64,000 bases of DNA from Dehalococcoidia bacterium. Its GTDB lineage: Bacteria > Chloroflexota > Dehalococcoidia > Lucifugimonadales > CAZENU01. A program made the translations under genes and the position numbers. The notes beneath the pieces were generated by a model. It had not been told where the DNA came from and did not search any database. It worked only from the letters and a program-made list of their open reading frames with translations. The stretch covers positions 3,519,392-3,583,391 of the forward strand of contig OZ220748.1 in NCBI GenBank assembly GCA_965117035.1. Reading direction: 5' to 3'. Below are positions 11,045-62,538 of the stretch, piece by piece; the stretch's first letter is position 1, and each line of letters starts with the position of its first letter.

Positions 11045-11205
11045 CCCGTGGATTCCCGCCTTCGCGGGAACGACGATTTTGCAAGGGTCTCCGAAGGCGG
11101 GAATCCAGGGGCGGGGCCTCCCAGGTACGGAATCGACGCGCGTCCACCACTGTTCGCCGCAACCAACGGGGTTATGCAAAAGTATCCTGCGCGGGAATGA
11201 CGAGC
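11045..11205. repeat. REP-like short palindromic modules (ttcccgc-N4-gcgggaa type)
   Basis: ggattcccgccttcgcgggaacgacg, ccgaaggcgggaatccagggg and cctgcgcgggaatgacg occur here. Related copies lie at 5945-6200 and 16535-16570. Confidence 0.45.
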
Positions 11206-11242
11206 TTGCAGGCGCGCGACGTCGCGGCAGTGGCGGTTACAT

Positions 11243-16456: not shown

Positions 16457-16624
16457 CCTTGTGGCAAAATGGGAGGCGCCGGAAACCGGCGAGACCGGTA
16501 CAATGGCGGAGTCTGTCCGGTAGTTGGGAACCCCACCCTGGATTCCCGCCTGCGCGGGAAAGACGGTTATGTGAGGTCCCGGCGGAGCGGCGGGCAGATG
16601 AACGGACGAACACAGGAGGGCGCG

Positions 16625-17051: not shown

Positions 17052-19214
17052 ATGCGGCGAGACTCGCTCCGCAGGTCGACATTCGGGATGAGCAGCTTTC
17101 TGGCGAAGGCCGCCGCGCTCGTTCTCCTCGCACTCTTCGCGGCCGCGTGCTCGGGCCTCGGCGAGGCCAGTCAGGCCAACGAGGCCGGCGTCGCGCTCGC
17201 CGCGGAGGGGATGTGGCGGGAGGCTCTCGCGGAGTACGACCGCGCCATCGACCTGAAGGCCGACTTCGCCGAGGCCTACAACAACCGCGGCGGCGCGCAC
17301 CGCGCCCTGGGAAACCGCGAGGCCGCGCTCGCGGACTTCACCGAGGCGACGAGGCTGAACGACGACCTGGCCGTCGCCCACGTCAACGCGGCCTCCATCC
17401 TGCTCGACCTCGGGCGCACTGACGAGGCGGTCGCTCACCTGGACCGCGCGTTCACCCTGCCGCTATCCGAGACCGAGGTCGCGTCGGCGTACTACCACTA
17501 CGGCCGCGTACACGCGGCCCGCGAAGACTGGGAGGCGGTGCTCGACGCGATGGGCGAGGCGATCGACCTCGACTCGGAGAACGCGGACGCGTTCTACATC
17601 CGCGGCCAGGCGTACGTCGCGATCGGGATGGTGCCCAGCGGGCTCAGGGACGCCCAGGAGTGCCGGCCCGGTCCCGCCTGCCGGCGGGCCGACGGGGATT
17701 TCGGCAACGCCGTCCGCGCCAACCCCGACTTCGTCGACGCGTACGTCGCCCGCGCGGACCTGCGCGTCATCAGGGGCGCCATGTCGCCGGCGATCAGGGA
17801 CTACGACGAGGCGATCTGGCGAGAGCCCGACAACCCGGACTACTACCAACGCCGGGGCCTGGCGTACGTCCGGCTCGGCCGCAAGAGCGAGGCCATCGCC
17901 GACTTCGAGCACGCGATCCGGCTCGACCCCGGCAGGGCGGCCGCGTACAGGGCCCGGGGACTGGCCTACGTCGAGCTCGGACAGCCCGAGCTGGCCGTCC
18001 CCAGCTTCGACGAGGCGGTGCGGCTCGACCCCCAGGACCCGGGCGCGTACTTCGGGCGGGCGCAGGCGCGCGCCGCCCTGGGGCAGACCCAGGAGGCGCT
18101 GACCGACTTCGACGCCGCGATCCGGCTGTTCGCCGACGACTCCGAGGCCCTCAAGGGAAGAGGCAAGGTCCACGTCGAGCTCGGCAATCTCGATCTCGCC
18201 GTCGACGACTTCGGGTCGGCGATCCGTCTCGCCCCGCAGGACCCGGAGCCGCTCCGGCTCCGCGCCGCCGTCTACGTCGAGCTGGGACGCATCGAGGAGG
18301 CCGTGAGGGACCTGGACGGCGCGATCAGGCTGGACAGGGGCGATGCGGAGAGCATCAACGCACGGGGCCTCGCGTACCTGGAGCTCGGCGAGCCGGAGAA
18401 GGCGCTGAAGGACTTCGCGACGGCGATCACCACGGAGCGGACCGAAAACGCGCGCTACTACATCAACCAGGCCAGGGCGTTCCTGGACCTGGAAGACCTC
18501 GAGAAGGCGGTGGAGGCCTACGACAACGCCCTGGTGCGCGATTCACGGTACCGGTACATGTACCGCGCCGCCCTGACCTCCTTCGAGCAGCCCAACCGGC
18601 GCCGGCGCGCGCTGCCCGACCTCGAGGGGGCCCTGGAGCTCGCGCCGGTGCTCATCCGAGCGTACCAGGCCCGGGCAGCGGTGCTGACCGACCTCGAACG
18701 CACCGAGGAGGCCGAGGCCGACCTGCGGCGCGTGGGCGAGATCGAGTCCGACATCGTGACGATGGAGGAGCTGATCGAGCGCATCCAGAGCGAGCCGGAG
18801 CCACCTCCGCAGCCGCCTCCGCCCCCGCGCCGTCCCGCGTCGGCGGGCCCGAGCCCCGCGGAGATCGCCGCGGCACAGGAGGCGATCAAGACCGCGATCC
18901 AGGCGAGCGTCGCCAGCGTGCACGTCGGCAAGGAGCGCACCGTCTGCGGGACCGTCTCGGCCGTGCGGCAGGCGAGCGAGGGCCGTGCCGTCTTCATAGA
19001 CTTCGGCCCGCCCGACCCGGACCAGCACTTCGTCGCCTACTTCCCCAGCCTCGTCACCCGCGTCGGCGACTGGCCCGATTTCGTCGACAGGTCGATCGAC
19101 ATCGTCGACTGGCTCATGAACCGGGAGCTGTGCGTAACCGGTCGCATCGAGCGCTACCGGGGCAAGCCGGCCATCAACGCCAGCTTCTGGCACCAGTACA
19201 AGATCCCCCAGTAA
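17052..19214 (+). CDS. TPR-repeat lipoprotein with Pro-rich linker and C-terminal OB-like domain
   Basis: Signal peptide plus lipobox LFAAAC/SG. At least 12 TPR units (AxxxYNNRGxAxxxLG...A.xDFxxAIRLDP). A PPQPPPPPRRP linker precedes the C-terminal segment VCGTVSAVRQASEGRAVFIDFG...GRIERYRGKPAI. Confidence 0.8.
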   Translation: MRRDSLRRSTFGMSSFLAKAAALVLLALFAAACSGLGEASQANEAGVALAAEGMWREALAEYDRAIDLKADFAEAYNNRGGAHRALGNREAALADFTEATRLNDDLAVAHVNAASILLDLGRTDEAVAHLDRAFTLPLSETEVASAYYHYGRVHAAREDWEAVLDAMGEAIDLDSENADAFYIRGQAYVAIGMVPSGLRDAQECRPGPACRRADGDFGNAVRANPDFVDAYVARADLRVIRGAMSPAIRDYDEAIWREPDNPDYYQRRGLAYVRLGRKSEAIADFEHAIRLDPGRAAAYRARGLAYVELGQPELAVPSFDEAVRLDPQDPGAYFGRAQARAALGQTQEALTDFDAAIRLFADDSEALKGRGKVHVELGNLDLAVDDFGSAIRLAPQDPEPLRLRAAVYVELGRIEEAVRDLDGAIRLDRGDAESINARGLAYLELGEPEKALKDFATAITTERTENARYYINQARAFLDLEDLEKAVEAYDNALVRDSRYRYMYRAALTSFEQPNRRRRALPDLEGALELAPVLIRAYQARAAVLTDLERTEEAEADLRRVGEIESDIVTMEELIERIQSEPEPPPQPPPPPRRPASAGPSPAEIAAAQEAIKTAIQASVASVHVGKERTVCGTVSAVRQASEGRAVFIDFGPPDPDQHFVAYFPSLVTRVGDWPDFVDRSIDIVDWLMNRELCVTGRIERYRGKPAINASFWHQYKIPQ

Positions 19215-19237: not shown

Positions 19238-19337
19238 TGTCGTCCCGAGCGCAGAGAGGGACCTGGGGCGGGGCCCCTTGACCTCGCTCACGACCCGGCC
19301 AACTCCCACCCCAGGCCCCTCACTTCGTTCAGGGTGA
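19238..19337. repeat. Single copy of the long-hairpin repeat family (same family as the 128/139-bp arrays)
   Basis: tgtcgtcccgagcgcagagagggacctggggcgggg ... ccaccccaggcccctcacttcgttcagggtgac, located between convergent genes. Confidence 0.6.
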
Positions 19338-19375
19338 CATTGGGTGGGAATCCCGGTCTCACCGGGCGGTGGGAG

Positions 19376-20494: not shown

Positions 20495-20507
20495 GGGGAA
20501 CCTCCGG

Positions 20508-20655
20508 AGTAGTGGATAGTGGATAGTTGCTAGTGGATAGTTAAGAGGGACGTTGGCAACTATACACCTGCGGCCCGACACCCGCCACTGGGCGAAGTAG
20601 TGGATAGTGAATAGTGGCAAGTGGATAGTTAAGAGCGGTCTCGGCGGCTATGGAT
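20508..20655. repeat. AT-rich TATCCACTA/ATAGTGG element, two tandem copies (2a 20508-20566, 2b 20596-20655)
   Basis: Both copies share AGTGGATAGT(g/t)...AGTGGATAGTTAAGAG(g/c)g...ggc(a/g)(a/g)ctat. An inverted CTATCCACTA sits at 20743-20752, overlapping the fabF stop codon. Confidence 0.6.
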
Positions 20656-20742
20656 GTGCTGCTCCGCGCCTGTCGCGGGCGGGGAGAATGGACAGTCAAG
20701 GCCACGGCGGATCAGCGGTCGCTGCGCGCCCGCCTTTTCCCG

Positions 20743-26117: not shown

Positions 26118-26333
26118 CTTCGGTGAGTCGGCTCCAGGCGAGGGTCATGAAGCTCCGGACGCAGTGTGGCCGCATCGTGGTCGGTCCAGGGGATGCCCGC
26201 AGCCACGCCGGTCACGCAATTCGGGAGAGATGATACCATCGGATCGGGCCAGTGCCAGATCGCCTGGATTCGCGGATCCGTCCGACATCGTTCACTCGGC
26301 CCGGATTCGCGTACCGCCGAGGAGGTGCGTGCC

Positions 26334-29300
26334 ATGGCATTCCTCAGGTCCGTACGACCGCTCTGGGGACTAACGGTCGTACTGGCTCTGGCTACGGCCG
26401 TCGCCTTCTCTGTCGTCTACGAGGCCCGCGGTCCCGACCGGGCCATCGACGCCCAATCCCCGGAGATCCGCATCGACTCCGTGAGTCCCGTGCCTCCCGC
26501 CTGCATCGTGTTGAGCTCGGATGTCGTCAGCCAACGGACGCTGACGATTACCGGCCGGAATCTGGCGGCCACGTCGGACACGAGGCTTCAGTTCCGGCTG
26601 GTGGGCAGCATAGACATCTCCATCCTATTCGGTCTGCAGGTGAACTGGGAGAGCGACACGCGCATCACGCTGGACATGGGCGAGATCAGGAGAAGCCTGT
26701 GGACCTTCAAGGTCATGAATATGCAGGTCCGGGTCACGGGGGAGAGGAATAAGCTCAACTCCAACTGGTCTGAGCGCTTCCTGGTCGTCAGGACCGCGGA
26801 CAGGTGCGAGGTGCAGGGGCCAACGCCGACGCCGACATGGGCGCCGGCCGAATTCCCCGCAAGGCCGGCCGTTCGCGGACTCGCGGGAGACCTCTGGGCG
26901 GACGTGATCCTCGGGAAGCCGGACTTCTCGCAGATAGTCCCCAAGAGCGTCGTTCCGTTCAAGGTGTTCAACCCCGGAGGCGTTGTCGTAGACCGCTCGA
27001 CCGATCCTGGCAGGGCGTACGTCTGGGACTCGGGCAACAGCCGTATCCTGGGCATCGATCTCGCGAAGTGCTACGACGGCCCCAGCCCATGCTCTGCCGA
27101 GATCGTGCTCGGCCAGCCATCCCTGTACGACCGTGGGGCCTGTAACCGGGACAGTGGCGTCCAGGGCTACCCGGCGCGGGCTACGGCCAGCGCCGAGACC
27201 CTGTGCGGCATGCCCGACTTCTCCCTTAGCCCGTGGGAGGCCCACAACTTCGTGACGATGGCGGTCGACAGCCGCGGCGCACTGTACGTTCCTGATTTTT
27301 CGAACAACAGGGTGTTGAAGTACAACAATCCCTTCGTCAGCGACTCCGTTGCCGACGCGGTATGGGGTCAAGCCGACTTCTCGGGCATGGACTGCAACCG
27401 CGGCGACTTCGGCCGGCCGACGTCCGAGACCATCTGCTTCGACTCGGTCACCAACAGGCTCGTGACCAACCTGCAGAGTGCGGGCGTAGAGGTCGATGAC
27501 GAGGGCAACGTGTGGGTAGCTGACACGGGCAATCACCGCGTTGTGCGTTTCTCGATGAGCTCCCTCACGGGCGCGGTCTCCAGGACCGCCAGCCTCGTCT
27601 TGGGCCAGCCGGACTTCGGGAGCGCCGAGCCCGGACGCGCCCTGAACAGGCTGTACGCGCCTTCGGCGGTCAGGATCGCTCCAGATGGCTCGGCGTACGT
27701 CGCCGATACGGGCAACAGCCGGGTGCTCGTCTTCAAGCCTCCATTCGAGTCCGGCATGGAGGCGGACTCCGAGTTCGGGTCGCAGTTGTACCATCCGACA
27801 TCGGTCGAATTCGATCCGGCCGGCCGCGGCGTGTGGGTCAACGACGCGGGGAACCGCATGGTTGAGCTGTGGGATATGGCGGGCACGTCGGTGTCGAAGG
27901 TGCTTGGGAAGGACTCCTATCGACCTGACCGAGCGTGCGGCAGACCGTTGGAGTCCCTGGCCGGCGCTCCGCACCTCTGTTACATCGCCGGAGGATTTGG
28001 GATCGACGGCAATGGGAATGTACTCGTTCCCGTGTTCCTCGCTACGGCTGACGTGATCCGGTTTGGGACCGCGGGAAGCGATCCAATCGGCCGCGCGGAC
28101 AAGCGCCTTTTCTTCCCGCCGCCGGACTCTAACTTCAAAGACCTCGAGAGCATACACTCCGCCCGTGGCGTCGCGGTCTGGAGAGACCAGCTCATAGTCT
28201 CCGACATCGCCAGGCTGATGTTCTGGAACGGGCTAGACACCCTGTCGAATGGCAGGCCAGCTGACGGCGTAGTAGGCGACGAGTTCACCTATCGGGACGG
28301 ACGCCCCTGGTGCTGCGGCAGGATCAAGGTGGACGCGGCCGGCCGACTCTGGGTCTTGTCTTTCGAGGGAAGAAAGTTCGTCGACGTCTATCAACTCCCA
28401 CTGACCGATGAATCCGTCCCGCTGTACACCGTGTGGACTGACGTCGGCGGGACCGTTCCGGTCTTGGGAGAGGACTCCGGGATACAGCTTGGCCCCGTGA
28501 TGTTCGGGGTCGCGCCGGTTGGGTCCGGGGAGTTCGTCTGGCTGAGCGATACGGACAATCATCGCGTGCTGCGCATCCGGGATCCCTTGACGAACCCGGT
28601 CGTGGACGTGGTCCTGGGACAGGAGAACGCCAGTGGGAACGAGTGCAACCGCGGCCGGTTCAAGGCAGCGGCCAGGACCTCGGTGGAGCTCCAGGCAAAC
28701 AGCGACGTGCTCTGTTTCCCGGGGGCGCTATCCATCGATCGGTTCGGCAATCTCTATGTGTCGGACCACGGGCTGGAAGTGAATGGAAACCTCCGTCTGC
28801 TGGTGTTCTCGCCTACGGCGATTCCGTCGACCAATTCGGAGGCGATATTCGCTCCGTTCGCGTCTAAAATATTCGTCCGTTCCGCTGTTGGCCGCCACAA
28901 CCTGTGGGCGGATCCTCAGGGGCGTGGAGCAGTATTTGGCGAACGCGATCTAACTCTGACGTCCGCCACATGGGAGGTTGCGTTCGACAGCACCAACAGG
29001 ATGGTAACGGGGTACAACGCCTATGTTGGCCCAAGGTTCGTTGGGGTATACGACGATCCTCTCGGCCCGGCCACACTGCCCGATGCCTTCCTCAACGACT
29101 TTGGATCAATGCCGTTCGCGGTAGCCTTCGACGACGACGACAACCTGTACGTCGGCGACATCAACCGCGCCAGGGTTCTCGTGTACCGCAATCCGTTCCA
29201 CAATCCGCCGCGGACCGCCGCGGCGCCGACTCCGGAGGCTGCGCCGCCTGTGCCCCAGTATCCGGCGACCATAGCGTCGGTCCATCCAGGCCCTCCATAT

Positions 29301-30167
29301 TGCGTGGTGCGTCGGTCTCAGCATCGCTACGAGAAGACCTTCGTCCTGGAGTTCGACGGCGACATCGGGGCGGGCGAGCATCTGGTCTTCCGCAGGGTCG
29401 TCGACGGCCACCGAGAAGGGCTCCCGCTCAACGACCGGAGCCAAGTCAGAAGGAGTGGGAATCGCATCACCGTCGACATGACACAGCTAGGGCCTCGTGC
29501 CTGGCGGGAGCGTCCGAGGCTGACGTTGACGGTACGAGTCGTCGACGGCGACTTCCGTCCGCTGTCGAACTGGTCGCCGGTGTTCCTGCTGGCCGACGAT
29601 GTCGAGACCTGCGGCGCTGCCCTGCCTACGCCCACCCCGACTCCGACGCAGACCCCGACACCAACCCACACACCGACGTCGACTCCGACCCCCACCCGAA
29701 CGCCTACGCCAAGCCCCACGCCTACGCCGACTCCCACGGCAACTATCACGCCTACCCCAACCCCCACCTCCACCCCCACGCCGACTCTGTCGCCAACGCC
29801 AATGCCCACGGCGACGTTGATGCCAACCCCAACGCCTACTCCAACCCCGACACCCAGCCCAACGGCGACACTCTCGCCTACGCCGCCCTCCACCGCGGCA
29901 TCGGAGCTGACTGCCACCGTCGCGCCCGGGACGACGCCGACGCCGCGTCCTGCGACGCCACCCACGCCGGAGTCCGCGGCGGTGCCACCGACCGCCGAGA
30001 TGCCGTCCGCACCCGAAGGCGGCGGCTGTACCGCGATCGCAGACGTACGACCCGGTGGCATCGAACTGAGCATGATGCTGCTACTGCTGTTGCCGGCCGG
30101 GCTCGCGGGGTGGAGGAGACGTCGCGGCCCGGTCACGTCGCCCAGGGATGGCGAACAGCGCCGATAA
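26334..30167 (+). CDS. Giant secreted/anchored NHL-repeat beta-propeller protein with Pro/Thr linkers and conserved C-terminal GGGC-TM-Arg tail (paralog 1)
   Basis: ATG at 26334 follows GGAGGT. There is an N-terminal signal anchor (PLWGLTVVLALATAVAF). About 10 NHL-like blades are present ([84 protein letters not shown]...). A ~125-aa PT linker leads to the tail [10 protein letters not shown]...[21 protein letters not shown]. Confidence 0.8.
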   Translation: MAFLRSVRPLWGLTVVLALATAVAFSVVYEARGPDRAIDAQSPEIRIDSVSPVPPACIVLSSDVVSQRTLTITGRNLAATSDTRLQFRLVGSIDISILFGLQVNWESDTRITLDMGEIRRSLWTFKVMNMQVRVTGERNKLNSNWSERFLVVRTADRCEVQGPTPTPTWAPAEFPARPAVRGLAGDLWADVILGKPDFSQIVPKSVVPFKVFNPGGVVVDRSTDPGRAYVWDSGNSRILGIDLAKCYDGPSPCSAEIVLGQPSLYDRGACNRDSGVQGYPARATASAETLCGMPDFSLSPWEAHNFVTMAVDSRGALYVPDFSNNRVLKYNNPFVSDSVADAVWGQADFSGMDCNRGDFGRPTSETICFDSVTNRLVTNLQSAGVEVDDEGNVWVADTGNHRVVRFSMSSLTGAVSRTASLVLGQPDFGSAEPGRALNRLYAPSAVRIAPDGSAYVADTGNSRVLVFKPPFESGMEADSEFGSQLYHPTSVEFDPAGRGVWVNDAGNRMVELWDMAGTSVSKVLGKDSYRPDRACGRPLESLAGAPHLCYIAGGFGIDGNGNVLVPVFLATADVIRFGTAGSDPIGRADKRLFFPPPDSNFKDLESIHSARGVAVWRDQLIVSDIARLMFWNGLDTLSNGRPADGVVGDEFTYRDGRPWCCGRIKVDAAGRLWVLSFEGRKFVDVYQLPLTDESVPLYTVWTDVGGTVPVLGEDSGIQLGPVMFGVAPVGSGEFVWLSDTDNHRVLRIRDPLTNPVVDVVLGQENASGNECNRGRFKAAARTSVELQANSDVLCFPGALSIDRFGNLYVSDHGLEVNGNLRLLVFSPTAIPSTNSEAIFAPFASKIFVRSAVGRHNLWADPQGRGAVFGERDLTLTSATWEVAFDSTNRMVTGYNAYVGPRFVGVYDDPLGPATLPDAFLNDFGSMPFAVAFDDDDNLYVGDINRARVLVYRNPFHNPPRTAAAPTPEAAPPVPQYPATIASVHPGPPYCVVRRSQHRYEKTFVLEFDGDIGAGEHLVFRRVVDGHREGLPLNDRSQVRRSGNRITVDMTQLGPRAWRERPRLTLTVRVVDGDFRPLSNWSPVFLLADDVETCGAALPTPTPTPTQTPTPTHTPTSTPTPTRTPTPSPTPTPTPTATITPTPTPTSTPTPTLSPTPMPTATLMPTPTPTPTPTPSPTATLSPTPPSTAASELTATVAPGTTPTPRPATPPTPESAAVPPTAEMPSAPEGGGCTAIADVRPGGIELSMMLLLLLPAGLAGWRRRRGPVTSPRDGEQRR

Positions 30168-31527: not shown

Positions 31528-31935
31528 GGCGTCTCCCCCAGGGTGTCGAGTGTTCGCCCGATGATACGCCCGCCCGTTCGCCTTGGCAACGGCGCTCGGC
31601 GGGATGGCCCTCGCCGGGAACCGCGTCTTTGGAGTCCACCGTCGGAGACCCTGCATACCTGGTCAATCCGCGCAGAGCCTGCCCCATGAAGACGGAGGCG
31701 GCAATCTTGGGGCCGTCGATGCGTGCGCCGCGTTCCCCTCAGCAACTTTGGACGCGAGGCCGCCACCTCTGCCCCGACGGCCGCCGCTCACGCAGCTTGG
31801 GGAGATGATACCATCGGACGCCTCAGACATGGACCGTCGGTCGCTTCCCTGCGGGGAACGCTTCCCATACGTGTCCGACGAGTCGATGCCCGTTTACCAG
31901 CCGCGGGTTGGCGTAACCGCCCAGAGGTGAGAGCC

Positions 31936-34900
31936 ATGCCGCAATTCAACCTGGACCGCCCGCTTTGGGGGCTGATGGTCTTGCTGGCTTTCGTATCGGC
32001 CGTCGCCCTCCTGTCGATCTTCGAGAGCCGTGGGTCCGACGCGGGTCTCAACGCCCAGTCGGGGTCGGAGTTCCCGGCCAGGCCGGCGGTGAGGGGAGTC
32101 CCTGGCGACCTCTGGGCTGACGTGATCCTCGGGAAGCCGGACTTCACGCAGACAGTGCCGAAGAGCGTTGTCCCGTTCAAGGTGTTCAACCCCGGTGGGG
32201 TTGTCGTGGACCGGTCGACCGATCCCGGCCGGGCGTATGTCTGGGACTCGGGCAACAGCCGGATTCTGGGTATCGATCTCGCCAAGTGCTATGAGAGTAC
32301 TGGGCCCTGCTCGGCCGATATTGTGCTGGGCCAGCCGTCGCTGTACGATCACGCGGCCTGCAACGGAGACAACGGCGTTCAGGACTATCCGTTTCGGGCA
32401 CTTGCCGGCGCCGAAACGCTATGCGGCAACCCCGACCACTCCCTCAGCCCGTGGGAAGCGCATATGTTTGTGACGATGGCGATCGACAGTCGCGGCGCCC
32501 TGTATGTCCCTGACTTTTCCAATCACAGGGTGCTGAAGTACAACAATCCCTTCGTCAGCGACGCCGTCGCCGACGCCGTGTGGGGACAGGCGGACTTCTC
32601 GGGCATCGAGTGCAACCGCGGGGACATCGGCCGGCCGACGGCCGAAACGCTCTGTTTCGACTCGGGCACCAACAGGCTCGCGACCAACCTGCAGAGCGTT
32701 GGCGTGGAGGTCGATGAGGAGGGAAACGTCTGGGTCGCGGACAGCGGCAATCACCGCATTCTTCGGTTCTCGATGAGCTCTCTGACGGGTGCGGTCTCCA
32801 GGAAAGCCAGCCTCGTCCTGGGCCAGGCTGACTTCGAGAGCGCCGAGCCCGGAAGGACCTTGGACAAGCTGTACGCGCCTTCGGCGGTGAGGTTCGCTCC
32901 CGATGGCTCGGCGTACGTTGCCGACACCGGCAACAACCGAGTCCTGGTCTTCAAGCCACCGTTCCAGTCCGGAATGGAGGCGGCCTTCGAGTTCGGGTCT
33001 CGACTGCACCATCCCACGTCGGTCGAAATCGACCCTGGCGGCCGCGGTGTATGGGTCAACGATGCGGGGAACTACATGGTCGAGCTGTGGGACGTGTCGG
33101 GTTCATCGGTCTTGAAGGTCCTCGGCAAGGACTCGTATCGGCCCGAGCGAGAGTGCTACAAGCCGCTTGAGTCGCTGCCCAGCAGTCCCCACATGTGTCC
33201 AATCGCCGGAGGCTTCGGGATCGACAGCCAGGGAAACGTCCTGATCCCCGTGTTCCTCCGCACCAATGACGTCATCCGCTTTACGACTGCCGGGCGCGCC
33301 CCGATCGGCCGCGCCGACAAGCGCCTGTTCTATCCGCCGGAGGACGCCAACTTCAAGGACCTCAAGGGGATACACTCCGCCCGCGGCGTAGCTGTCTGGA
33401 AGGACCAACTCGTCGTGTCCGACTTATTCCGGCTGATGTTTTGGAACGGGCTCGACATGCTATCGAACGGAAGACCGGCGGACGGCGTCGTTGGCGACGA
33501 AAATCAGGCCCGCGCCTGGTCGTGGTGCTGCGGCACGATCAAGGTGGACGCAGCAGGCCGCCTCTGGGTGTTGGCTTTCGAGGGACGGCGGTTCGTCGAC
33601 GTCTATCAGCTTCCGCTGACCGAAACATCAGTCCCGCTGCACACGATGTGGACAGATACAGGCATGACTCTTCCGGTACTGGGAGAGGACTCCCGGATCA
33701 TGCTCGGCCCCAGGATGTTCGGGATTGCGCCAGTTGGGTCCGGAGAGTTCGTCTGGCTGAGCGATGCTGACAATCATCGCGTGCTGCGCATCCGGGACCC
33801 CCTGACGCACCCGGTCGTGGATGTGATCCTGGGACAGGAGGACGCCAGCGGGAACGAGTGCAACCGCGGCCGGTTCGAGGCGGGGGCCAGGAACTCGGTC
33901 GGAGACCGGTCGAATGGTGATGTGCTCTGTTACCCTGGAGCGCTGTCCATCGACCGCCTTGGAAACCTCTACGTATCGGACCATTCGCTGGAAGTGAATG
34001 GGAACTTCCGCCTGCTCGTCTTCTCGGGGGCGGCACTCCCGACGACGAATTCGGAGGTCATATACGCCCCTCTGGCATCAAAGATATTCGTCCGTTCCGC
34101 CGAGGGTCGGAACAACCTATGGGCGGATCCCTTGGAGCGCGGAGCGGTAATCGGGGAGCAGGAGCGGACGCTTCTGATGGCGACCTGGGAGGTCGCGTTC
34201 GACAGCGCCAACAGGATGGTAGCGGGGTACAACGCGTACCTGGCCCCCAGGTTCGTAGGTGTCTACGACGACCCTCTTGGCCCGGACACGCTCCCGAATG
34301 CCTACCTGAACGACTTCGGCTCGTCGCCGTTCGCGATGACCTTTGACGACGACGACAACCTGTACGTCGGTGACCTCAACCGCGCCCGGGTCCTCGTATA
34401 CCACAACCCGTTTGGAAGTCCGCCGAGAACATCGCCCGTGCCAACCCCGGATACTCCGCCGCCGGTACCCGAGCACCCCATCACCATAACGTCGTTCCAT
34501 CCCGGCCCTCCATTTTGCGTGGTGCGCCGGTCTCAGCACCGGTACGAGCAGACCCTTGACCTGGAGATCGAAGGCGACATCGGGGGAGGCGGTCTTGGGT
34601 TGGTGTTTCGCATGGTGACCGATGGCCGCCGAGAACGAATCTCGCTCAACGACCGTAACCAGGTTCGAACGAGGGGAAATAGCATCACCGTCGACATGAG
34701 ACACTTCGGGCCTCGTGTCTGGCGGGAGCGCCCCAAGGTGACGATGATGGTCCGAATCGTCGACAGCGAATCCCTGCCGCTATCGAACTGGTCGCCGGCG
34801 TTCCTGCTCGCCGACGACGTCGAGACCTGCGGCGTTGCCCTGCCAACTCTGACGCCGACCCCGACGCCGACCTTCACGCCATCGCCGACGCCGACACCGA

Positions 34901-35346
34901 CCTTCACGCCATCGCCGACGCCAACGCCGACCCTTACGCCTACGCCGACACCGACGCCCACGCCGACCCTCACACCAACACAGACGCCCACGCCGACCTT
35001 CACACCGACACAGACACCTACGCCGACCCTGTCGCTGACTCCCACGCCGACCGCCACCGTCACGCCGTCACCGACCCTGACCCCGACCGTCACCCCGTCA
35101 CCGACCCCGATGTCGACTCACACCCCAACCCCGGTGGTAGATCCCGATTCCGTGACGGCCGTCGGGCCGACCGGCGAGGCGCCGTCCGGTGCCGAGGGCG
35201 GTGGCTGTACGGCGATAGCAGACGGTCGACCTGCGGGCACGGAGCTGAGCATGATGCTGCTCCTGCTCCTCCCGGCCGGACTTGCGGGCTGGATGAGGCG
35301 GCGAGGCCCGTTCACGGCGCCAGAGGATGGCGCGCGGTACCGGTGA
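31936..35346 (+). CDS. Giant secreted/anchored NHL-repeat beta-propeller protein (paralog 2)
   Basis: ATG at 31936. It is collinear with paralog 1 from [10 protein letters not shown] onward, with roughly three quarters of residues identical by eye. It has the same blades, the same [18 protein letters not shown] module, a ~100-aa PT linker, and the tail [10 protein letters not shown]...[21 protein letters not shown]. Confidence 0.8.
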
Positions 35347-39860: not shown

Positions 39861-39903
39861 CCTCCGACGCTCCGGGCGGGTGCCGGGAGAGGAAACCACG
39901 GGC

Positions 39904-40725
39904 ATGGAGCTTGACCGCGATCGCCTGAGGGCCATCCTGGAGGCGGACCACTCGTACTACGGCTCCCAAGCTCCCGAGTCTCGCGACGACGACCGCCTCG
40001 TCCCGAGCGCGTCCGACTTCATCGCGTCGCAGTTCGACCCGGACATGCGTGTCCTCGACGTCGGCTGCGGCAGCGGCGCCACGCTGGTGGAGAACGCCGA
40101 CCGGTTCGGCTCAGGCCTTGGGTTAGACGACGACCCGGACCACGTCCGCCTGGCAGACGAGGCGCTGCGGCGCGGCGGCCGCGACAACGTCGAGTTCCGC
40201 CTGCTCGACTTCCGCGAGGAGAGCCTCGAGCTGGAAGCGGAGTCCTTCGACTTCGTCTTCTCGGAGCGCGGCCCGATCGGCTACGACGGCTACGGCATCC
40301 AGGCCGCGCTGAGAGTGCTGAAGGAGGACGGCCTCCTGTTCTGCGAGGTGATCGGCAACCTCCACCACCAGGAGGTGAACGCGGTATTCGGCCCCACCAC
40401 GCCGCGCCACCAGATGATCCGGACCCTGGACGAGGTGCGCGTCGCCATGGAGCGGAACGGCGTCAGCATCCGCATCGCGTCGGAGACCGTGACGAAGCGC
40501 TACTACCCGAGCATCTACGACTGGCTGTCGTTCCAGTGCGGCATCTGGGCCTGGGGCGGCGGTCCGCTCCCGTCTCCCGACGACGCGCGGCTGTCGCTGT
40601 TCGCGGAGCGCTACATGAGGCCGTCGGGCGAGATAGAGACGACGCACCACGTGGTGTGGGTCGGCGGCGTGAAGCGGACAGCCGATTCCTTCTACGCGGA
40701 GCGCAGCTACTTCGGCACGCCTTGA
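39904..40725 (+). CDS. Class I SAM-dependent methyltransferase
   Basis: Motif I VLDVGCGSGA; post-I acidic LGLDDD. Start 39904 (ATG) is preferred over 39880. Confidence 0.75.
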   Translation: MELDRDRLRAILEADHSYYGSQAPESRDDDRLVPSASDFIASQFDPDMRVLDVGCGSGATLVENADRFGSGLGLDDDPDHVRLADEALRRGGRDNVEFRLLDFREESLELEAESFDFVFSERGPIGYDGYGIQAALRVLKEDGLLFCEVIGNLHHQEVNAVFGPTTPRHQMIRTLDEVRVAMERNGVSIRIASETVTKRYYPSIYDWLSFQCGIWAWGGGPLPSPDDARLSLFAERYMRPSGEIETTHHVVWVGGVKRTADSFYAERSYFGTP

Positions 40726-40739
40726 AGCGCGGCGAGCCT

Positions 40740-41915
40740 GCCGGAGCCGGCGGCTGCCGCAGAACTGTCGTCCTGAGCGAAGCGGAAGGACCTGGGTCGG
40801 GGTCGCCTCGACGCCGTGTCGCCTTCGCCCGACCCCAGGCCCCTCACTCCGCTCGTGGCGACAATGGGGGCGGCCGAGCGGCTGCGGGCGCACTTGTCGT
40901 CCTGAGCGAAGCCGAAGGACCTGGGGTGGGGTCGCCTCGACGCCGTGTCGCCTTCGCCCCACCCAGGCTCCTCACTCCGTTCGGGGCGACAATGGGGGCG
41001 GCCGCGCGGCTGTAGGAGCACTTGTCGTCCTGGGCGAAGCCGAAGGACCTGGGGCGGTGTCGCCTCGACGCCGTGTCGCCTTCGCCCCACCCAGACCCCT
41101 CACTCCGCTCGTGGCGACAATGGGGGCGGCCGGCGGCTGCGGAAGCACTTGTCGACCTGAGCGAAGCCGAAGGACCTGGGGCGGTGTCGCCTCGACGCCC
41201 TGTCGCCTTCGCCCGACCCCAGGCCCCTCACTCCGCTCGTGGCGACAATGGGGGCGGCCGTGCGGCTGCGGGAGCACTTGTCGTCCTGAGCGAAGCCGAA
41301 GGACCTGGGGCGGGGTCGCCTCGACGCCGAGTCGCCTTCGCCCGACCCCAGGCCCCTCACTCCGTTCGGGGCGACAATGGGGGGGCGGCCGCGCGGCTGC
41401 GGGAGATCTGTCGTCCTGAGCGAAGTCGAAGGACCTGGGGCGGTGTCGCCTCGACGCCCTGTCGCCTTCGCCCGACCCCAGGCCCCTCACTCCGCTCGTG
41501 GCGACAATGGGGGCGGCCGGCGGCTGCGGAAGCACTTGTCGACCTGAGCGAAGCCGAAGGACCTGGGGCGGGGTCACCTCGACGCCGAGTCGCCTTCGCC
41601 CCACCCCAGGCCCCTCACTCCTTCGGGGCGACAATGGGTGGCGGCCGTGCGGCTGCGGGAGATCTGTCGTCCTGAGCGAAGCCGAAGGACCTGGGGTGGG
41701 GTCGCCTCGACGCCGAGTCGCCTTCGCCCCACCCCAGGCCCCTCACTCCGTTTGGGGCGACAATGGGGGCGGCCGCGCGGCTGTGGGAGATCTGTCGTCC
41801 TGAGCGAAGCCGAAGGACCTGGGGTGGGCTCGCCTCGACGCCGTGCCGCCTTCGCCCCACCCCAGGCCCCTCACTCCGTTCGGGGCGACAATGGGGTCGG
41901 CCGCCACGCACTTCC
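40740..41915. repeat. Tandem array of a long-hairpin repeat, ~128-bp unit x 9
   Basis: TGTCG(T/A)CCTGAGCGAAG starts at 40766, 40895, 41023, 41150, 41279, 41409, 41537, 41665 and 41793. Each unit holds inverted arms (GTCGTCCTGAGCGAAGCCGAAGGACCTGGGGYGGGG ... CCCCACCCCAGGCCCCTCACTCCGYTCGKGGCGAC). There are no unique spacers. Confidence 0.9.
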
Positions 41916-41925: not shown

Positions 41926-43173
41926 TTAGAACAACGACTCGCCCGGTCCGAGGTTGGCCGCGCACACCTCCTCGTCCAGCTCAACGCCGAAGCCCGGCGC
42001 GTCGGTGAGCGCGAGCTGGCCGTCCTCGAACAGCGAGACGCCCTCGCGCCGGACGAAGGAGCCGATCCACGGCGTCTCGATGTGGTGGTACTCGAGCGCG
42101 AGGAAGTTCCTCGTGGCAGCGGCCACGTGCGCCGCCGCGATGGTCGCGAGCGCGCCCCCGCCGCCGTGCAGCGCCAGCGGTATGAAGTGCAGGTCGGCGT
42201 AGTCGGCGATCCGACGCGTCTCGAACACCCCGCCGTCGTACAGGATGTCGGGGTGGATGATGTCGCAGGCGCCGGCGTCGATGTACTGCCGCAGCTCAGG
42301 CGCGATGAACTGCTCGCCGATGCATATCGGTATCGGGCTCTTCGCCCTGATCTGGGCGATCGCCTCCGGGTTGTACAGCGGCGTCGGGTCCTCCAGCCAG
42401 AACGGTTTGAGCGGCGCCAGATCGTTCGCCAGCCTGATCGAGTCGACGACGTTGTACTGCATGTGGCAGTCGACCGCGATCTCGACGTCCCATCCCACCG
42501 TCTCGCGCACCGCGCCGATGCGCTCCACGATGCGGTTCATCTGCCGCGCCGAGATCGACCGGTTCCAGACGTCCTCCGTATGGTCTGGCGCGGCGTAGTC
42601 GATGTCGAACTTCATGTGCGTGAAGCCGTCCTCGACCACCTGCGTGCCCATGCGCTTCCACGAATCGAGGTTCTCCACGTCGACGGGAGAGCTGCGGTCG
42701 AGGTATATGCGGACGGCGTCCCTGAACTTGCCGCCCAGCAGGTTGTAGACCGGGGTCCCGAGAATCTTGCCCGCCAGGTCGCACAGCGCCATCTCGACGC
42801 CCGACATGCCCCACGTCACGGGGCCGGGCTGGATGACGGTCGGAGAGCAGGGGAACATGGGGATCAGTCCCGGCGCGTCCGGCGGCGAGTCCCGCCGGGA
42901 CTGGGGGTGTGGCGGCAGCGTGCCGAACATGACCTCCGACAGCGCCGGGCGGACCGCCAGCGGGTCCTTGCCGACCAGCATCATGCGGATGTAGTCGAGA
43001 GCGTCACGTATGCCCATCGGCGACGCCGTGAAGTACGACGCCTCGCCCAGGCCGTAGACGCCTTCGTCCGTGTCCACGCGGACGACAAGCTCCCGGGCGA
43101 CGCCCTCGCCGCCGCCCACCGTATGCAGCCGGGGCCCCTCCAGGTACAGGCTTCTCACGTCGGTGATCTTCAT
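41926..43173 (-). CDS. Enolase-superfamily enzyme (mandelate racemase/muconate lactonizing family, acid-sugar dehydratase-like)
   Basis: MKITDV... N-terminal capping domain. Metal-ligand segments AVDCH, WLEDP and IGEQ are present. Confidence 0.85.
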   Translation of the reverse strand: MKITDVRSLYLEGPRLHTVGGGEGVARELVVRVDTDEGVYGLGEASYFTASPMGIRDALDYIRMMLVGKDPLAVRPALSEVMFGTLPPHPQSRRDSPPDAPGLIPMFPCSPTVIQPGPVTWGMSGVEMALCDLAGKILGTPVYNLLGGKFRDAVRIYLDRSSPVDVENLDSWKRMGTQVVEDGFTHMKFDIDYAAPDHTEDVWNRSISARQMNRIVERIGAVRETVGWDVEIAVDCHMQYNVVDSIRLANDLAPLKPFWLEDPTPLYNPEAIAQIRAKSPIPICIGEQFIAPELRQYIDAGACDIIHPDILYDGGVFETRRIADYADLHFIPLALHGGGGALATIAAAHVAAATRNFLALEYHHIETPWIGSFVRREGVSLFEDGQLALTDAPGFGVELDEEVCAANLGPGESLF

Positions 43174-52401: not shown

Positions 52402-52542
52402 CTAGAAGAGCAATACGAGCGCGGCTATGACGACCAGCAGCGCGAGGCCGGTCATGTATACGCCCATGATGTGGTTCGTGCCCCACATCGCGGCCGCGGG
52501 CTGGGGGTCGTCGACGCCGTGGTCTTCTTCGTGGTGTCCCAT
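52402..52542 (-). CDS. Possible 46-aa His/acidic-headed single-TM micro-protein (below ORF-track cutoff)
   Basis: The minus strand reads AGAGGTCAGGAA-ATG, then MGHHEEDHGVDDPQPAAAMWGTNHIMGVYMTGLALLVVIAALVLLF, stop TAG. The RBS-like purine tract and hydrophobic C-terminus are the only support. Confidence 0.3.
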   Translation of the reverse strand: MGHHEEDHGVDDPQPAAAMWGTNHIMGVYMTGLALLVVIAALVLLF

Positions 52543-52614: not shown

Positions 52615-52960
52615 CCAGTGTCGCGTGGCCCCCACCCCAAGTCCCTCACTTCGTTCGGGACGACAGTGCGGCGTCGCGCAGCGAGGAGTCACCAGCCAAT
52701 GTCGCCCTGAGCGAAGCCGAAGGGCCTGGGGCGGGGCGATATCGCGTCGTGGGGCAGTGTCGCGTGGCCCCCACCCCAGATCCCTCACTTCGTTCGGGAC
52801 GACAGTGCGGCGTCGCGCAGCGAGGAGTCACCAGCCAATGTCGCCCTGAGCGAAGCCGAAGGGCCTGGGGCGGGGCGATATCGCGTCGTGGGGCAGTGTC
52901 GCGTGGCCACCACCCCCAGGTCCCTCACTTCGTTCGGGACGACAGGGCGCCCTCATGCTG
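52615..52960. repeat. Tandem array of the long-hairpin family, 139-bp unit x about 2.5
   Basis: TCGCGTGGCC recurs at 52621, 52760 and 52899. The arms are GTCGCCCTGAGCGAAGCCGAAGGGCCTGGGGCGGGG ... CCCCACCCCAGATCCCTCACTTCGTTCGGGACGAC. The last partial unit provides the 3' end of the UDG gene. Confidence 0.8.
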
Positions 52961-53641
52961 ACTCCAGGCGAGCGCTTCCTTTGCGCTGCGGAAGGCGTCG
53001 GTGAGCATCTGCTGCGTGAGGCGGCCGGTCTGGGTGTTCTGGCGGCTGGGGTGGTAGGAGGCCATGAGCGTGACGTCCCCCATGTCGTACGCGGCGCCGT
53101 GGGCGAACGGCGGCCGCGGCCTGGGAATGTCGACGCCCGCGTCGCGGTACGCCGCGATCACGCCGTCGAAGGCGATCCTGCCCAGCGCCATGACGACCCG
53201 GACCCTGCGCAGCAGCGAAAGCTCGGCGACCAGGTACCGGCGGCAGTTGTCCAGCTCCTCCCGGAGCGGCCTGTTGCCGGGCGGGGCGCATCGCGCGACT
53301 GCCGTGACGTACGCGTCGTCGAGCCTCATGCCGTCGTCCCGGCCGCGCGATATCGGCGAGCTCGCGAACCCCAGCTCGTGCAGCGTGGTGAACAGGAAGT
53401 CGCCGCTGCGGTCGCCGGTGAACATCCGGCCCGTCCTGTTCGCCCCGTGGGCGGCTGGCGCCAGGCCGACGATCAGCAGCCGCGCGTCCGGGTCGCCGAA
53501 GGAGGGCAGGGGACGGCCCCAGTAGTCCCAGTCGGCGTACATGCGCCGCTTCGCGCGCGCCACCGTTTCCCGGTGTTCCACCAGCCTGGGACAGCGCGTG
53601 CAGCCGACGACCTCGCGCCGCACGTCCGGGAGGGTGTCCAT
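52925..53641 (-). CDS. Uracil-DNA glycosylase, family 5 (UdgB-like, 4Fe-4S)
   Basis: CTRCPRL Fe-S Cys. GLAPAAHGANRTGRMFTGD is the family-5 motif, with Ala in place of the family-4 catalytic acid. SYHPSRQN. Confidence 0.85.
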   Translation of the reverse strand: MDTLPDVRREVVGCTRCPRLVEHRETVARAKRRMYADWDYWGRPLPSFGDPDARLLIVGLAPAAHGANRTGRMFTGDRSGDFLFTTLHELGFASSPISRGRDDGMRLDDAYVTAVARCAPPGNRPLREELDNCRRYLVAELSLLRRVRVVMALGRIAFDGVIAAYRDAGVDIPRPRPPFAHGAAYDMGDVTLMASYHPSRQNTQTGRLTQQMLTDAFRSAKEALAWSQHEGALSSRTK

Positions 53642-58437: not shown

Positions 58438-58606
58438 TAACTGTTCAGAGTTGGTGAAGCGGAACGTCTGAACTGTGATTTGTGGGATTGGGATGATTGG
58501 GGCTGAGCCTCGCCCACTCTTCGTGGCGGCCCCTCGATACACCCCGACGAAGCGTCGGGGCACTCGGGGCGAACGGGTCAGGTGTCCCCTCAACTCTGAA
58601 CAGATG
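58438..58606. mobile_element. MITE-like non-autonomous element, copy D, with 8-bp direct flanking repeats
   Basis: Termini are TAACTGTTCAGAG ... CTCTGAACAGATG. CCCGCCGG lies immediately on both sides (58430-58437 and 58607-58614). The interior carries CCTCGATACACCCCGACGAAGCGTCGGGGCACTCGGGGCGAACGGG, identical to copy A. Confidence 0.65.
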
Positions 58607-58652: not shown

Positions 58653-58808
58653 CGGTCGGTCTGTCGCGGAGCTTTCTGACGCCCCGACAGGGGCGTGCCG
58701 ACGCAGGGTGCCGGGCCTTCTTCCCCCATTCTCTTCGAGTCCGTGGGAGTGCTTGGCCGGCGACAGTCGCTTCCGTCAACACAGGTCGATGATGAGAGGT
58801 TGTGAATA

Positions 58809-60101
<1,293 letters not shown>

Positions 60102-60106: not shown

Positions 60107-62332
60107 CTACCAGGGCGGCGGAGGCCAGGTGCCCAGGCGGCGCTTGCCGCGGGCGTTGGGGCGGTTCTTCCACCACCGGCGCAGCAGCGCCGCAGACGTG
60201 ATGAACGCGACGATCGTCGCGATGATGCTCCAGCCGAGCACCGCACGCGTCGTGCGCGACAGCGGGGCCGGCGTAGGCGTACGCTCTACCGTCCCGAGCT
60301 GCTGGTTGAGCGCCGTGAACACCCCGCCGCCCCAGGTGCCCGCGTAGAGGACCTGGTCGGTGCCGAAGGCCGGGGACAGCGCGACGTCGAGCACCTCGGT
60401 GACCGCCAGCCCCAGGTTGACCTGCTGCCACGTGTCGCCCGCGTCGGTCGACCGGTAGATGCCTCCGCCCTCGGTGCCGACGAACAGCGTCGAGTCGACC
60501 GGGAAGGCGGGTGAAACGGCAATGGCGACGACGACCGGGTCGCCGAGGCCGCGTATCCTCTGGAACCAGGTGTCTCCGCCGTCGGTGGACCGGAGCACGC
60601 CGTCCTGGGTGGTGCCCGAGAATATCGTCTTGTCGTTGACGAAGTCGGGCGAGATGCTCAGGAGGGAGGTCTGGTTCTGGCCCGCGGTCGGGATGACCCG
60701 GACAGGCTCGCTCGAAGCCTCCCAGGAGTCACCCCCGTCGGTCGACCTGAACGACCCCTGGGACACGGTGCCCACGAACATGATCCGGTCGTTGGCGAAG
60801 TCGGGCGACAGCGCGATCGACCAGACGAACTCGCTGGTCAGACCGCCGCTCTGGATCTTCTGCCACGCATCGCCCCTGTCCGTGGACTTGAAGAGCCCGC
60901 TGCCCGTGGTCCCGGCGAAGACGGTCGAGTCGGAATCGAACGTCGGAGACAGCTTGACGACGTTGACGATGTCGGCCGTGATGCCGACCGATTTGCTCTG
61001 CCACGACTCCGCGCCGTCGTCCGAGCGGAAAACGCCCTCCGACGTCGCGGCGAATATGGTGGGATCGTCCGGGTAGGTGGGGGACAGCGCGATGCTGTAG
61101 ACCGTCACGTGCGGCAGGCCGCGGTTGACCTGCGTCCACGACTTGCCTCCGTCCTGGGACTTGAGGACTCCGCCGCCGGTGGTGCTGGCGAAGAGGGTCT
61201 GGTCGGTTGGGAAGTTCGGCGAGAGCTCGAGCTCGCGTACGAAGGTGCTCGTGCCCTGGGTGGCCTGGAGCCAGGAGAAGCCGCCGTCGGTGGACCGGAA
61301 GACGCCGCCAACCCCGATCCCGGCGAAGATGGTGGAGTCGAACTCGAACGTCGGGGAGATGGCGAGGGCGCGGACGGGGTCGTGGATCGCCCTTCTGCCC
61401 TCGTCCACCTGCTGCCAGGTGAACCCGCCGTCGACAGTCCTGTATACGCTGCCCGATATGCCGGCGAACAGGGTCTTGTCGGTCGCGAAAGTGGCCGACA
61501 GGGCGAGGGCGCGGGCGTTCGACCGCGACGGGTCGGGGTCGACGCGCTCCCACGAGCCGCCGTCGTCCGTCGTCCTGAGGATGCCGCCGCCGACTGTGCC
61601 GACGTAGATCGTCCTGTCGGTCGCGTAGGCGGGGGAGAAGGCGATCTCCAGCACGTTGGTCAGCGGGTTGCCCAGGTCGACCGCGCGCCAATTATCGCCG
61701 CCGTCGTCCGAGCGAAAGAGCTCCCCGCCCCACGCTCCCGCCATCACGATCGAGTCCCGCCCGTAGTCGGAGGACATGCCAAGCGCGACGATGCGGTTGT
61801 CCGTCAGGCCGGTGTTGACCTGCGTCCACGTCTCGCCCGCGTCCGTCGATCGGAAGATGCCCTCGCCGAACGCGCCGGCGAACACGGTACGGCCGGTCTC
61901 GAAGTCTGGTGAGACGGCGAGCGCCTCTACCGCGGCGGTCATGAGGACGGGGTCCTCGGCCTGCGTCCACGACCCGCCGCCGTCCTCCGACTTGAAGACG
62001 CCGTCGCCGGTCGTGCCGGCGAAGAGCGTCTGGTCGGATGCGTAGGCGGGCGATACGACCAGGGCGGGGACGAATCGGCTGGTGAGGCCCTTGTTCGCGC
62101 GGTCCCAGGAGTCGCCGCGGTCGGTCGACTTGAGCACTCCGCCCGATATGCCGGCGAACACGGTGCCGTCCTGCGAGAAGTCGGGAGAGATGGCCATGTC
62201 CCAGACGAAGCCGCTTCGCGGCCCGAGGGACTCCCATCCCACGGGCGCCGGCTCCTGGGCCTGCGCGTGGCCCGCGCCCGCCGCGATGGACGCAACAAGG
62301 GCGGCGGCCGCGAGCAGGAGTTTTCGTATCAT
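60107..62332 (-). CDS. BNR/Asp-box (Ycf48/sortilin-like) multi-blade beta-propeller protein with signal peptide and C-terminal TM anchor
   Basis: Signal peptide ...AGAGHAQA. 13 units of a ~45-aa repeat, each containing S-x-D-x-G-x-(S/T)-W (STDRGDSW, SEDGGGSW, STDAGETW ...). The C-terminal helix VLGWSIIATIVAFITSAALL is followed by RRWWKNRPNARGKRR. Confidence 0.75.
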   Translation of the reverse strand: MIRKLLLAAAALVASIAAGAGHAQAQEPAPVGWESLGPRSGFVWDMAISPDFSQDGTVFAGISGGVLKSTDRGDSWDRANKGLTSRFVPALVVSPAYASDQTLFAGTTGDGVFKSEDGGGSWTQAEDPVLMTAAVEALAVSPDFETGRTVFAGAFGEGIFRSTDAGETWTQVNTGLTDNRIVALGMSSDYGRDSIVMAGAWGGELFRSDDGGDNWRAVDLGNPLTNVLEIAFSPAYATDRTIYVGTVGGGILRTTDDGGSWERVDPDPSRSNARALALSATFATDKTLFAGISGSVYRTVDGGFTWQQVDEGRRAIHDPVRALAISPTFEFDSTIFAGIGVGGVFRSTDGGFSWLQATQGTSTFVRELELSPNFPTDQTLFASTTGGGVLKSQDGGKSWTQVNRGLPHVTVYSIALSPTYPDDPTIFAATSEGVFRSDDGAESWQSKSVGITADIVNVVKLSPTFDSDSTVFAGTTGSGLFKSTDRGDAWQKIQSGGLTSEFVWSIALSPDFANDRIMFVGTVSQGSFRSTDGGDSWEASSEPVRVIPTAGQNQTSLLSISPDFVNDKTIFSGTTQDGVLRSTDGGDTWFQRIRGLGDPVVVAIAVSPAFPVDSTLFVGTEGGGIYRSTDAGDTWQQVNLGLAVTEVLDVALSPAFGTDQVLYAGTWGGGVFTALNQQLGTVERTPTPAPLSRTTRAVLGWSIIATIVAFITSAALLRRWWKNRPNARGKRRLGTWPPPPW

Positions 62333-62395
62333 TGGTTGCCCTTGGTCCGGAGGGTGTGCGGAGCGAAGACGGGGGAGCGGAATGGCGATATGTCC

Positions 62396-62424
62396 ATCAT
62401 ACTTGTTTCGGGGAAGTTGTGCAA
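62396..62424 (-). promoter_or_regulatory. Sigma-70-like promoter for the BNR-repeat gene
   Basis: The minus strand reads TTGCAC-17 nt-TATGAT in a locally AT-rich patch, about 60 nt upstream of ATG 62332. Confidence 0.45.
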
Positions 62425-62538
62425 AATTTCACAGGCAGGCGCTTCCGATTCGGCATGGCGGCATCCCCCGGTGCATGATCGACGAGGCGCCAGCTGCGCT
62501 CGGGGGTCGCGCACGGCGGACGTGGGAACGCGGGAGCG

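Follow-up and report, generated by a model that had tools for sequence, protein, structure and literature searches.

The question raised by this locus is what kind of element fills the gap between two converging genes with nine tandem palindromic units, and whether it acts as DNA or as RNA. The locus (array 1) lies in a 64-kb stretch of DNA, here called the window. The source is an uncultured member of the Chloroflexota, and the window's proteins have their best-named homologues in Chloroflexi/Chloroflexota and Dehalococcoidia MAGs. A sequence-only reading had offered a multi-hairpin terminator or RNA-stability element, a structured ncRNA array, or an amplified REP/BIME-like element. The last of these is supported by three dispersed loci, locus-specific linkers, copy-number variation and inverted TGTC-tagged arms. 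Array 1 is probably a BIME-2-like or REPIN-cluster-like element. It would behave as BIME-2 and REPIN clusters do and be distantly related to the TGTC/CGTC-tagged REPs, without belonging to any named family.

Array 1 was delimited by TRF at 40746–41904, with a period of 128, 9.0 copies, 91% matches and a score of 1843. Its nine units span 1.16 kb and contain 18 arms. Unit starts (Table 1) are spaced 127–130 bp apart, in agreement with the tandem 128-bp copies first described. Each unit consists of a 97–98-nt imperfect palindrome, TGTCGTCC...GGGGCGACA, followed by a linker of ~30 nt. The left arm is 37 nt (TGTCGTCCTGAGCGAAGCCGAAGGACCTGGGGTGGGG), the right arm is 36 nt (CCCCACCCCAGGCCCCTCACTCCGTTCGGGGCGACA), and the loop between them is 25 nt, so the earlier picture of a ~100-nt hairpin with a ~25-nt loop was accurate. 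A perfect 12-bp inner stem had been noted in some units and is found in only one of the nine, unit 8. By chance, 0.13 occurrences of the 18-nt left-arm core would be expected in the window, and 11 are present. Units are 82–97% identical to one another in the identity matrix of the unit alignment. Right arms fall into two subfamilies, A (CCGCTCGTGG) and B (CCGTTCGGGG), and the array is a mosaic of these, with traces of a higher-order period of ~384 bp (three units). The linker is conserved in every unit and matches the array's own right flank and then its left flank.

Array 1 fills the space between two converging genes: the stop at 40725 ends a plus-strand methyltransferase gene, and the stop at 41926 ends an enolase-superfamily gene on the minus strand. 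Open reading frames and Pfam assignments uphold its earlier placement between a plus-strand operon end and a convergent gene end. Every reading frame had been described as open across the array. Each of the six frames contains 2–5 stops; the accompanying remark on many fake ORFs stands, since spurious ORFs of 86–220 aa still arise. A coding repeat was ruled out: 128 is not a multiple of 3, and GC content at codon positions 1, 2 and 3 of the array is 0.73, 0.66 and 0.78, versus ~0.9 at position 3 in real genes.

Table 1. Coordinates of repeats, hairpin units and genes in the 64-kb window.
Feature	Coordinates	Strand	Description
CGTC-1-type REP	11049..11075	-	CGTCGTTCCCGCGAAGGCGGGAATCCA, then CGGGTGGTG
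Second CGTC-1-type REP	16539..16565	-	CGTCTTTCCCGCGCAGGCGGGAATCCA
Solitary hairpin	19238..19339	.	102 nt, unrelated loop; between convergent TPR (stop 19214) and ADH (stop 19376) genes
SAM-dependent methyltransferase gene, upstream flank of array 1	39880..40725	+	Pfam Methyltransf_31/25/11; GC3 0.91; stop 40 nt before unit 1
Array 1	40746..41904	.	Nine tandem 128-bp units, each a ~98-nt hairpin and a ~30-nt linker; TRF and unit alignment
Hairpin unit 1	40766..40863	.	Right-arm subfamily A, CCGCTCGTGG
Hairpin unit 2	40895..40991	.	Right-arm subfamily B, CCGTTCGGGG
Hairpin unit 3	41023..41119	.	Subfamily A
Hairpin unit 4	41150..41247	.	Subfamily A; 97% identity with unit 6
Hairpin unit 5	41279..41376	.	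Subfamily B
Hairpin unit 6	41409..41506	.	Subfamily A
Hairpin unit 7	41537..41633	.	Subfamily B
Hairpin unit 8	41665..41762	.	Subfamily B; sole perfect 12-bp inner stem
Hairpin unit 9	41793..41890	.	Subfamily B; followed by unique right flank
Enolase-superfamily (MR_MLE) gene, convergent flank of array 1	41926..43173	-	Pfam MR_MLE_C/N and homologues; stop 35 nt after unit 9
Array 2	52616..52949	.	Period 139, 2.4 copies; own loop and linker
purA	58806..60101		

The sequence-only reading favoured a structured RNA under selection, transcribed from the plus strand where the methyltransferase operon ends: an ncRNA array, or several hairpins that terminate transcription or stabilise the transcript. 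The array lies directly 3′ of a plus-strand gene, its units form very stable plus-strand hairpins (-45 to -62 kcal/mol per unit), and U.G and G.U pairs in the outer stem would read A.C on the minus strand. These pairs had been taken to work only in a plus-strand transcript. However, RNAfold predicts folding of the units on both strands, and the minus-strand fold is often the more stable (unit 1, -62.1 kcal/mol on the minus strand versus -51.2 kcal/mol on the plus strand). Hairpin stability on either strand is about -45 to -64 kcal/mol per unit. The MFE of the whole 1.2-kb gap is -708.7 kcal/mol on the plus strand versus -709.3 kcal/mol on the minus strand, which contradicts plus-strand specificity. 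Whole-hairpin z-scores are about -3 on both strands.

Base pairs were counted in 11 copies using a self-written, strand-neutral palindrome structure of 36 pairs. Paired cells amounted to 82.7% on the plus strand versus 88.0% on the minus strand. No compensatory changes were detected in these copies, with zero double-sided pairs on either strand, and covariation scores fall under the shuffle mean. Covariation thus does not favour a plus-strand fold over a minus-strand one, the outcome that the sequence-only reading had itself named as evidence against a plus-strand RNA fold. Wobble-only positions were counted in 16 hairpins, including the copies of a relative, and are balanced, with 54 pairing on the plus strand alone and 60 on the minus strand alone. 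Nearly all differences between left and right arms are transitions, with a bias towards plus-strand pairing in the outer stem and towards minus-strand pairing in the middle stem. Both right-arm variants had been thought to stay complementary to the left arm. In variant CCGCTCGTGG one G.U pair becomes G-C, but a new C.U mismatch appears at stem position 8 and the left arm is unchanged, so that one pair is mended and another is broken.

Signals of termination or of a known RNA family were likewise absent from the array. No U-tract follows any hairpin on either strand, and array 1 contains no run of at least four T or A. A search for such signals returned 0 terminator-like sites and no promoters, and an intrinsic (Rho-independent) terminator was ruled out on these grounds. 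At the gathering score, Rfam models matched only two tRNAs across the window and nothing in the array, and a permissive search of the array gave just sub-threshold chance matches to miRNA-hairpin models on both strands. Array 1 is also missing from the same site in ten related contigs and in L001. With zero double-sided changes and no U-tract, neither the ncRNA array nor the plus-strand terminator is supported, and a selected plus-strand RNA is very unlikely. Array 1 is probably a strand-symmetric repeat that acts at the level of DNA, rather than a locus encoding an RNA from one strand.

Within the 64 kb, three loci share the left and right arms described above, with 13 right arms in total. 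These are array 1, a solitary hairpin, and a second, shorter array (array 2), at copy numbers of 9, 1 and 2.4. Array 2 is composed of a lone right arm (~52630–52665) and two hairpins (52700–52804 and 52839–52944). Its neighbours are two minus-strand genes: it adjoins the 3′ end of one for uracil-DNA glycosylase (UDG) on one side and a small conserved one of 46 aa on the other. All three loci are extragenic: two are flanked by converging genes, and the third by genes of the same orientation. Arm sequences are conserved from locus to locus. Loops and linkers are unrelated between loci, and linkers are conserved within a locus. Shared arms combined with locus-specific linkers and loops suggest that each array grew in place by duplication of a hairpin with its flank, and not by repeated insertion.

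Growth by local tandem duplication would also be expected of a local minisatellite (VNTR) that arose from a chance palindrome and is unrelated to any dispersed family, and very few copies were found outside the lineage. However, two further loci in the window carry the same arms around other loops and linkers, and the arms are also found at orthologous loci of a relative. The palindrome therefore predates array 1 and is independent of it, and a minisatellite origin is highly improbable. Mycobacterial MIRU-VNTRs are intergenic tandem repeats of 40–100+ bp whose copy number varies among strains. They are not long palindromes, and they often carry small ORFs that overlap the stop or start codons of neighbouring genes. 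Array 1 is like them in being an intergenic tandem repeat and unlike them in consisting of long palindromes.

Regularly spaced repeats with partial dyad symmetry could also indicate a degenerate or unusual CRISPR-like array. In array 1 the would-be spacers are the same conserved linker in all units, the repeats alternate in orientation, and no cas genes or Cas families were seen among the window's proteins. The earlier statement that this is not a CRISPR was correct, and the probability of a CRISPR-like array is vanishingly small. An integron attC array, considered by eye, seems unlikely: no cassettes lie between the hairpins and no GTTRRRY-like core was noticed.

The arms have a recurring organization. 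TGTC opens both arms in 16/16 copies, with the left arm reading TGTCGTCC, and CCTGGGG(Y)GGGG closes both. The arms are inverted in a tag-outside orientation, with a tag at either outer end of the hairpin. In every copy, the left arm departs from the right arm at the same ~8 positions. Within an arm the layout is 9+4+9 (GTCCTGAGC-GAAG-CCGAAGGAC), and only the outer 5 of 9 positions pair, these being G/C-rich. The self-stem of a single arm is just 5 bp (GTCCT/AGGAC; GCCCC/GGGGC). Single arms fold no better than shuffled sequence (z +0.91 and +0.39).

Two canonical CGTC-1-type REPs are also present in the window (11049–11075 and 16539–16565) and have the form CGTCnTTCCCGCGnAGGCGGGAATCCA. Near the first of these, at ~11093–11116 on the plus strand, is a partial CGTC-type copy whose tail, CCAGGGGCGGGG, is like that of a hairpin arm. 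The TGTC tag and CC(A/T)GGGG tail of the hairpin arms resemble these canonical CGTC REPs.

Syntenic contigs from ENA metagenomes were compared at the three sites. At the array-1 site, seven contigs (L010–L016; enolase ~90% identical) have an empty 56-bp spacer, and L002 has 218 bp of unique sequence. In three others (L001, L008 and L009; 93%) the gap, of 358, 355 and 391 bp respectively, contains a different array built of 33-bp CGTC-type units. The 56-bp convergent spacer is a clear natural case of a site filled separately, in sister lineages, by two different REP-family arrays. At the array-2 site, L006, from the closest relative (UDG 89%), has four hairpins of the same family (period 138, 3.8 copies) versus two in the window, and no family hairpin was found in L007 (83%). 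At the solitary site, a diverged copy is present in L018 (ADH 98%), and the site is empty (75 bp) in L019 (92%). Gain, loss and copy-number change of the family at these sites are rapid. Within ~290 kb of related sequence, the family occurs only in the closest relative, from sample ERZ25069388. Exact-pattern scans gave one isolated half-site among GTDB species genomes (L004, a Thermomicrobiales MAG) and one in JGI metagenomes (L005), and PLSDB plasmids had no match. Because the GTDB and JGI scans gave only isolated half-sites, the hairpin family looks narrow and not highly abundant.

Among characterized repeats, array 1 is close to the BIME-2 elements of Escherichia coli, in which different REPs are inversely oriented and repeated in tandem, linkers are conserved per locus, and copy number varies by locus and strain (Ton-Hoang et al. 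2012, PMC3333891). Shared features are the inverted pair plus linker in tandem, locus-specific linkers, variable copy number and an extragenic location at gene 3′ ends (PMC3333891). The differences are the tag, which is TGTC(G) here with no GTAG, and the host, a member of the Chloroflexota. In addition, classical REPs such as those of E. coli are imperfect palindromes of 20–40 nt that form stem-loops unaided, whereas the 36–37-nt arms described here are poor stem-loops alone. E. coli-type REPs also carry the GTAG at their foot and number more than 100 per genome.

REPINs of Pseudomonas fluorescens SBW25 are likewise ~100-nt hairpins built from two inverted REPs and a less conserved spacer (Bertels & Rainey 2011, PMC3116915). 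The largest SBW25 REPIN cluster contains four REPINs plus one extra REP, an arrangement paralleled by array 2 with its two hairpins and lone arm, and exceeded in size by the nine units and 1.16 kb of array 1 (PMC3116915). The 18 arms of array 1 in one cluster also exceed the two sets of twelve reported for SBW25 (PMC3116915). SBW25 REPINs show frequent compensatory changes and adjoin RAYT genes (PMC3116915), whereas zero such changes were found here and no RAYT is encoded in the window.

Closer parallels in tag and arrangement are found in the CGTC-tagged REP superfamily, in which the tag is often TGTC, with CCTC as another permitted variant (Di Nocera et al. 2013, PMC3733652). Its REPs mostly form tag-outside (HH) heterodimers, and they are located where neighbouring genes converge or point the same way (PMC3733652). 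Clusters in this superfamily are dimers reiterated with flanking DNA, and no dedicated transposase is known (PMC3733652). The hairpins described here share with it the TGTC tag, an allowed variant, as well as HH heterodimers, an intergenic location and clusters of reiterated dimers. CGTC families 1–4 have 8–9-bp stems that start with A-T pairs, 4–5-nt loops and a short unpaired CCA tail (PMC3733652). The arms of array 1 retain a 9+4+9 layout of lengths but do not follow these stem and loop rules. Their tail is CCTGGGG(Y)GGGG, and that of the partial CGTC-type copy near 11049–11075 is CCAGGGGCGGGG. The 2013 survey did not report CGTC repeats from Chloroflexi, for which only GTAG repeats were listed (PMC3733652). 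Array 1 and its relatives would extend TGTC/CGTC-type REP-dimer clusters to the Chloroflexota. It would be a common type of bacterial repeat, met here in a phylum that has received less study, and it opens no new biological question.

The variable presence of the hairpins at orthologous sites, their long conserved inverted termini (~37 nt, TGTCGTCCTGAGCG) and their variable interior are also features of MITEs. Under such an origin, the element would be a non-autonomous DNA transposon of ~100 bp, bounded by 37-bp terminal inverted repeats, moved by a DDE transposase whose gene lies elsewhere, and later amplified in tandem by recombination. IS elements with DDE transposases are present in related genomes. 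However, the termini carry a TGTC tag and a CC(A/T)GGGG tail like the canonical CGTC REPs of the same genome, and ordered tandem arrays that include flanks typify REP and REPIN clusters. No transposase with matching ends was seen, and no transposase, including RAYT, was found among the window's proteins. No target-site duplication was found at the junctions of any locus, these junctions being in diverged intergenic DNA and hard to define. A MITE is an unlikely explanation of the array.

For a REPIN-like cluster, a two-step origin is proposed. The building block would be a pair of non-identical REP-like arms of 36–37 nt, in each of which a short body separates the TGTC tag from the CCTGGGG(Y)GGGG tail; the two arms are joined tag-outside into the ~100-nt imperfect palindrome. 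As the empty sites in relatives suggest, one such dimer would first have entered the short convergent-gene spacer. The dimer and its immediate flanks would then have been duplicated head-to-tail to as many as nine copies. Local tandem amplification is indicated by the locus-specific linkers, by the match of the linker to the right flank plus the left flank, and by the mosaic of variants. Unequal recombination, slippage during replication and strand transfer through a REP-type transposase are candidates for this step. The fixed mismatches between the arms would persist since perfect long palindromes are unstable, an argument taken from PMC3733652.

A transcript entering the array from either side would form very stable hairpins without U-tracts, and a strand-neutral hairpin effect on the 3′ ends of both convergent transcripts is possible. 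More speculatively, and by analogy with E. coli REP/BIME elements, the hairpins could shield 3′ ends, impede read-through or bind gyrase. Nine copies exceed what any such proposed physiological role needs. Decidedly less probable than the cluster assignment itself, and rather improbable in its own right, is a further proposal that the hairpins belong to an undescribed, still-active TGTC-tagged REPIN-like family of a small uncultured Chloroflexota clade. Selection would favour its large clusters (up to 18 arms) as strand-symmetric barriers where genes converge, and their mobility would depend on a transposase so far unconnected with CGTC-type REPs. If so, the clusters would block read-through or absorb supercoiling from both sides.

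These arrays also affect gene prediction. Array 1 yields long spurious ORFs and should be masked as a repeat, and not annotated as genes or ncRNA. Array 2 lengthens the real UDG gene by 13 codons.

The 90-bp tandem array is another REP-like family with the same behaviour as the family of array 1, the nine 128-bp hairpin units. The 90-bp unit begins within the final codons and stop of a GCV_T-family gene (11201-12244, ...GGCCCCTCGATACACCCCGGCTGA) and contains the hairpin CCCCGGC-TGAC-GCCGGGG. At the orthologous site, related contig L018 has ~3.5 units (gap 18001-18427), whereas L019 has ~1 (gap 17786-17865). Coordinates of all features are listed in the table.

Repeat features and genes in the window and in related metagenomic contigs
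Feature	Window	Strand	Related contigs
90-bp tandem array, 3.8 copies, separate from array 1	12221-12559		
Dispersed single copies related to 90-bp unit	5872-5918; 6344-6378; 58528-58577		
33-bp-unit arrays	5962-6061		L001 6431-6648; L008 and L009, same gap
UDG ORF	52925-53641	-	
Conserved 46-aa hydrophobic small ORF	52402-52542	-	L006 11360-11500; L007 10754-10894
Large paralogous genes (two)	26151-30167; 31690-35346	+	
774-aa ORF	60107-62428	-	
7-mer clusters (TAGTGGA / GGATAGT)	15819-15884; 20505-20680		L001 12475-12518, 13210-13737

In three relatives (L001, L008, and L009), the site that holds array 1 in the window is occupied by an array of 33-bp units. The 33-bp units are composed of CGTC-tagged half-REPs (CGTC(A/G)TTCCCGCGCAG...), and the gaps containing these arrays are 358, 355, and 391 bp in the three contigs. 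CGATT is found at both edges of the ~300-bp insertion carrying the array in L001 (region 6400-6758), L008, and L009 and is single in the empty site of L010-L016, where the gap is 56 bp. The flanking CGATT pair may reflect either duplication of a 5-bp target or microhomology.

Array 2, which belongs to the same arm family as array 1, overlaps the end of the uracil-DNA glycosylase (UDG) gene. The UDG ORF encodes 238 aa in the window vs 225 aa in the closest relatives (the twelve best matches, P0122-P0132 and P0135). The ancestral stop is lost in the window, and the ORF runs 13 codons into the final right arm of array 2, terminating at a TGA within the repeat. The small ORF (MGHHEEDHGVDDP...LALLVVIAALVLLF) lies 3′ of UDG and was also predicted by gene callers in two relatives.

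The two large paralogous genes are offset by ~5.2 kb, share ~80% DNA identity over compared stretches, and are separated by a DegT-family aminotransferase gene. Each carries a run of tandem repeats, Asp/Pro-rich and of low complexity, close to its 3′ end (29634-29864 and 34851-35117). Two window proteins match NHL repeats and are probably the products of these paralogues. In the 774-aa ORF, a DNA repeat of ~138 bp (46 aa) recurs ~11 times in diverged form; this ORF probably encodes a beta-propeller-type repeat protein. It adjoins purA (58806-60101) with a gap of ~5 bp.

The 7-mer clusters are intergenic, adjoin gene starts, include an 88-bp repeat in two copies, and are found again in one relative. 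They may be binding-site arrays of a putative regulator.
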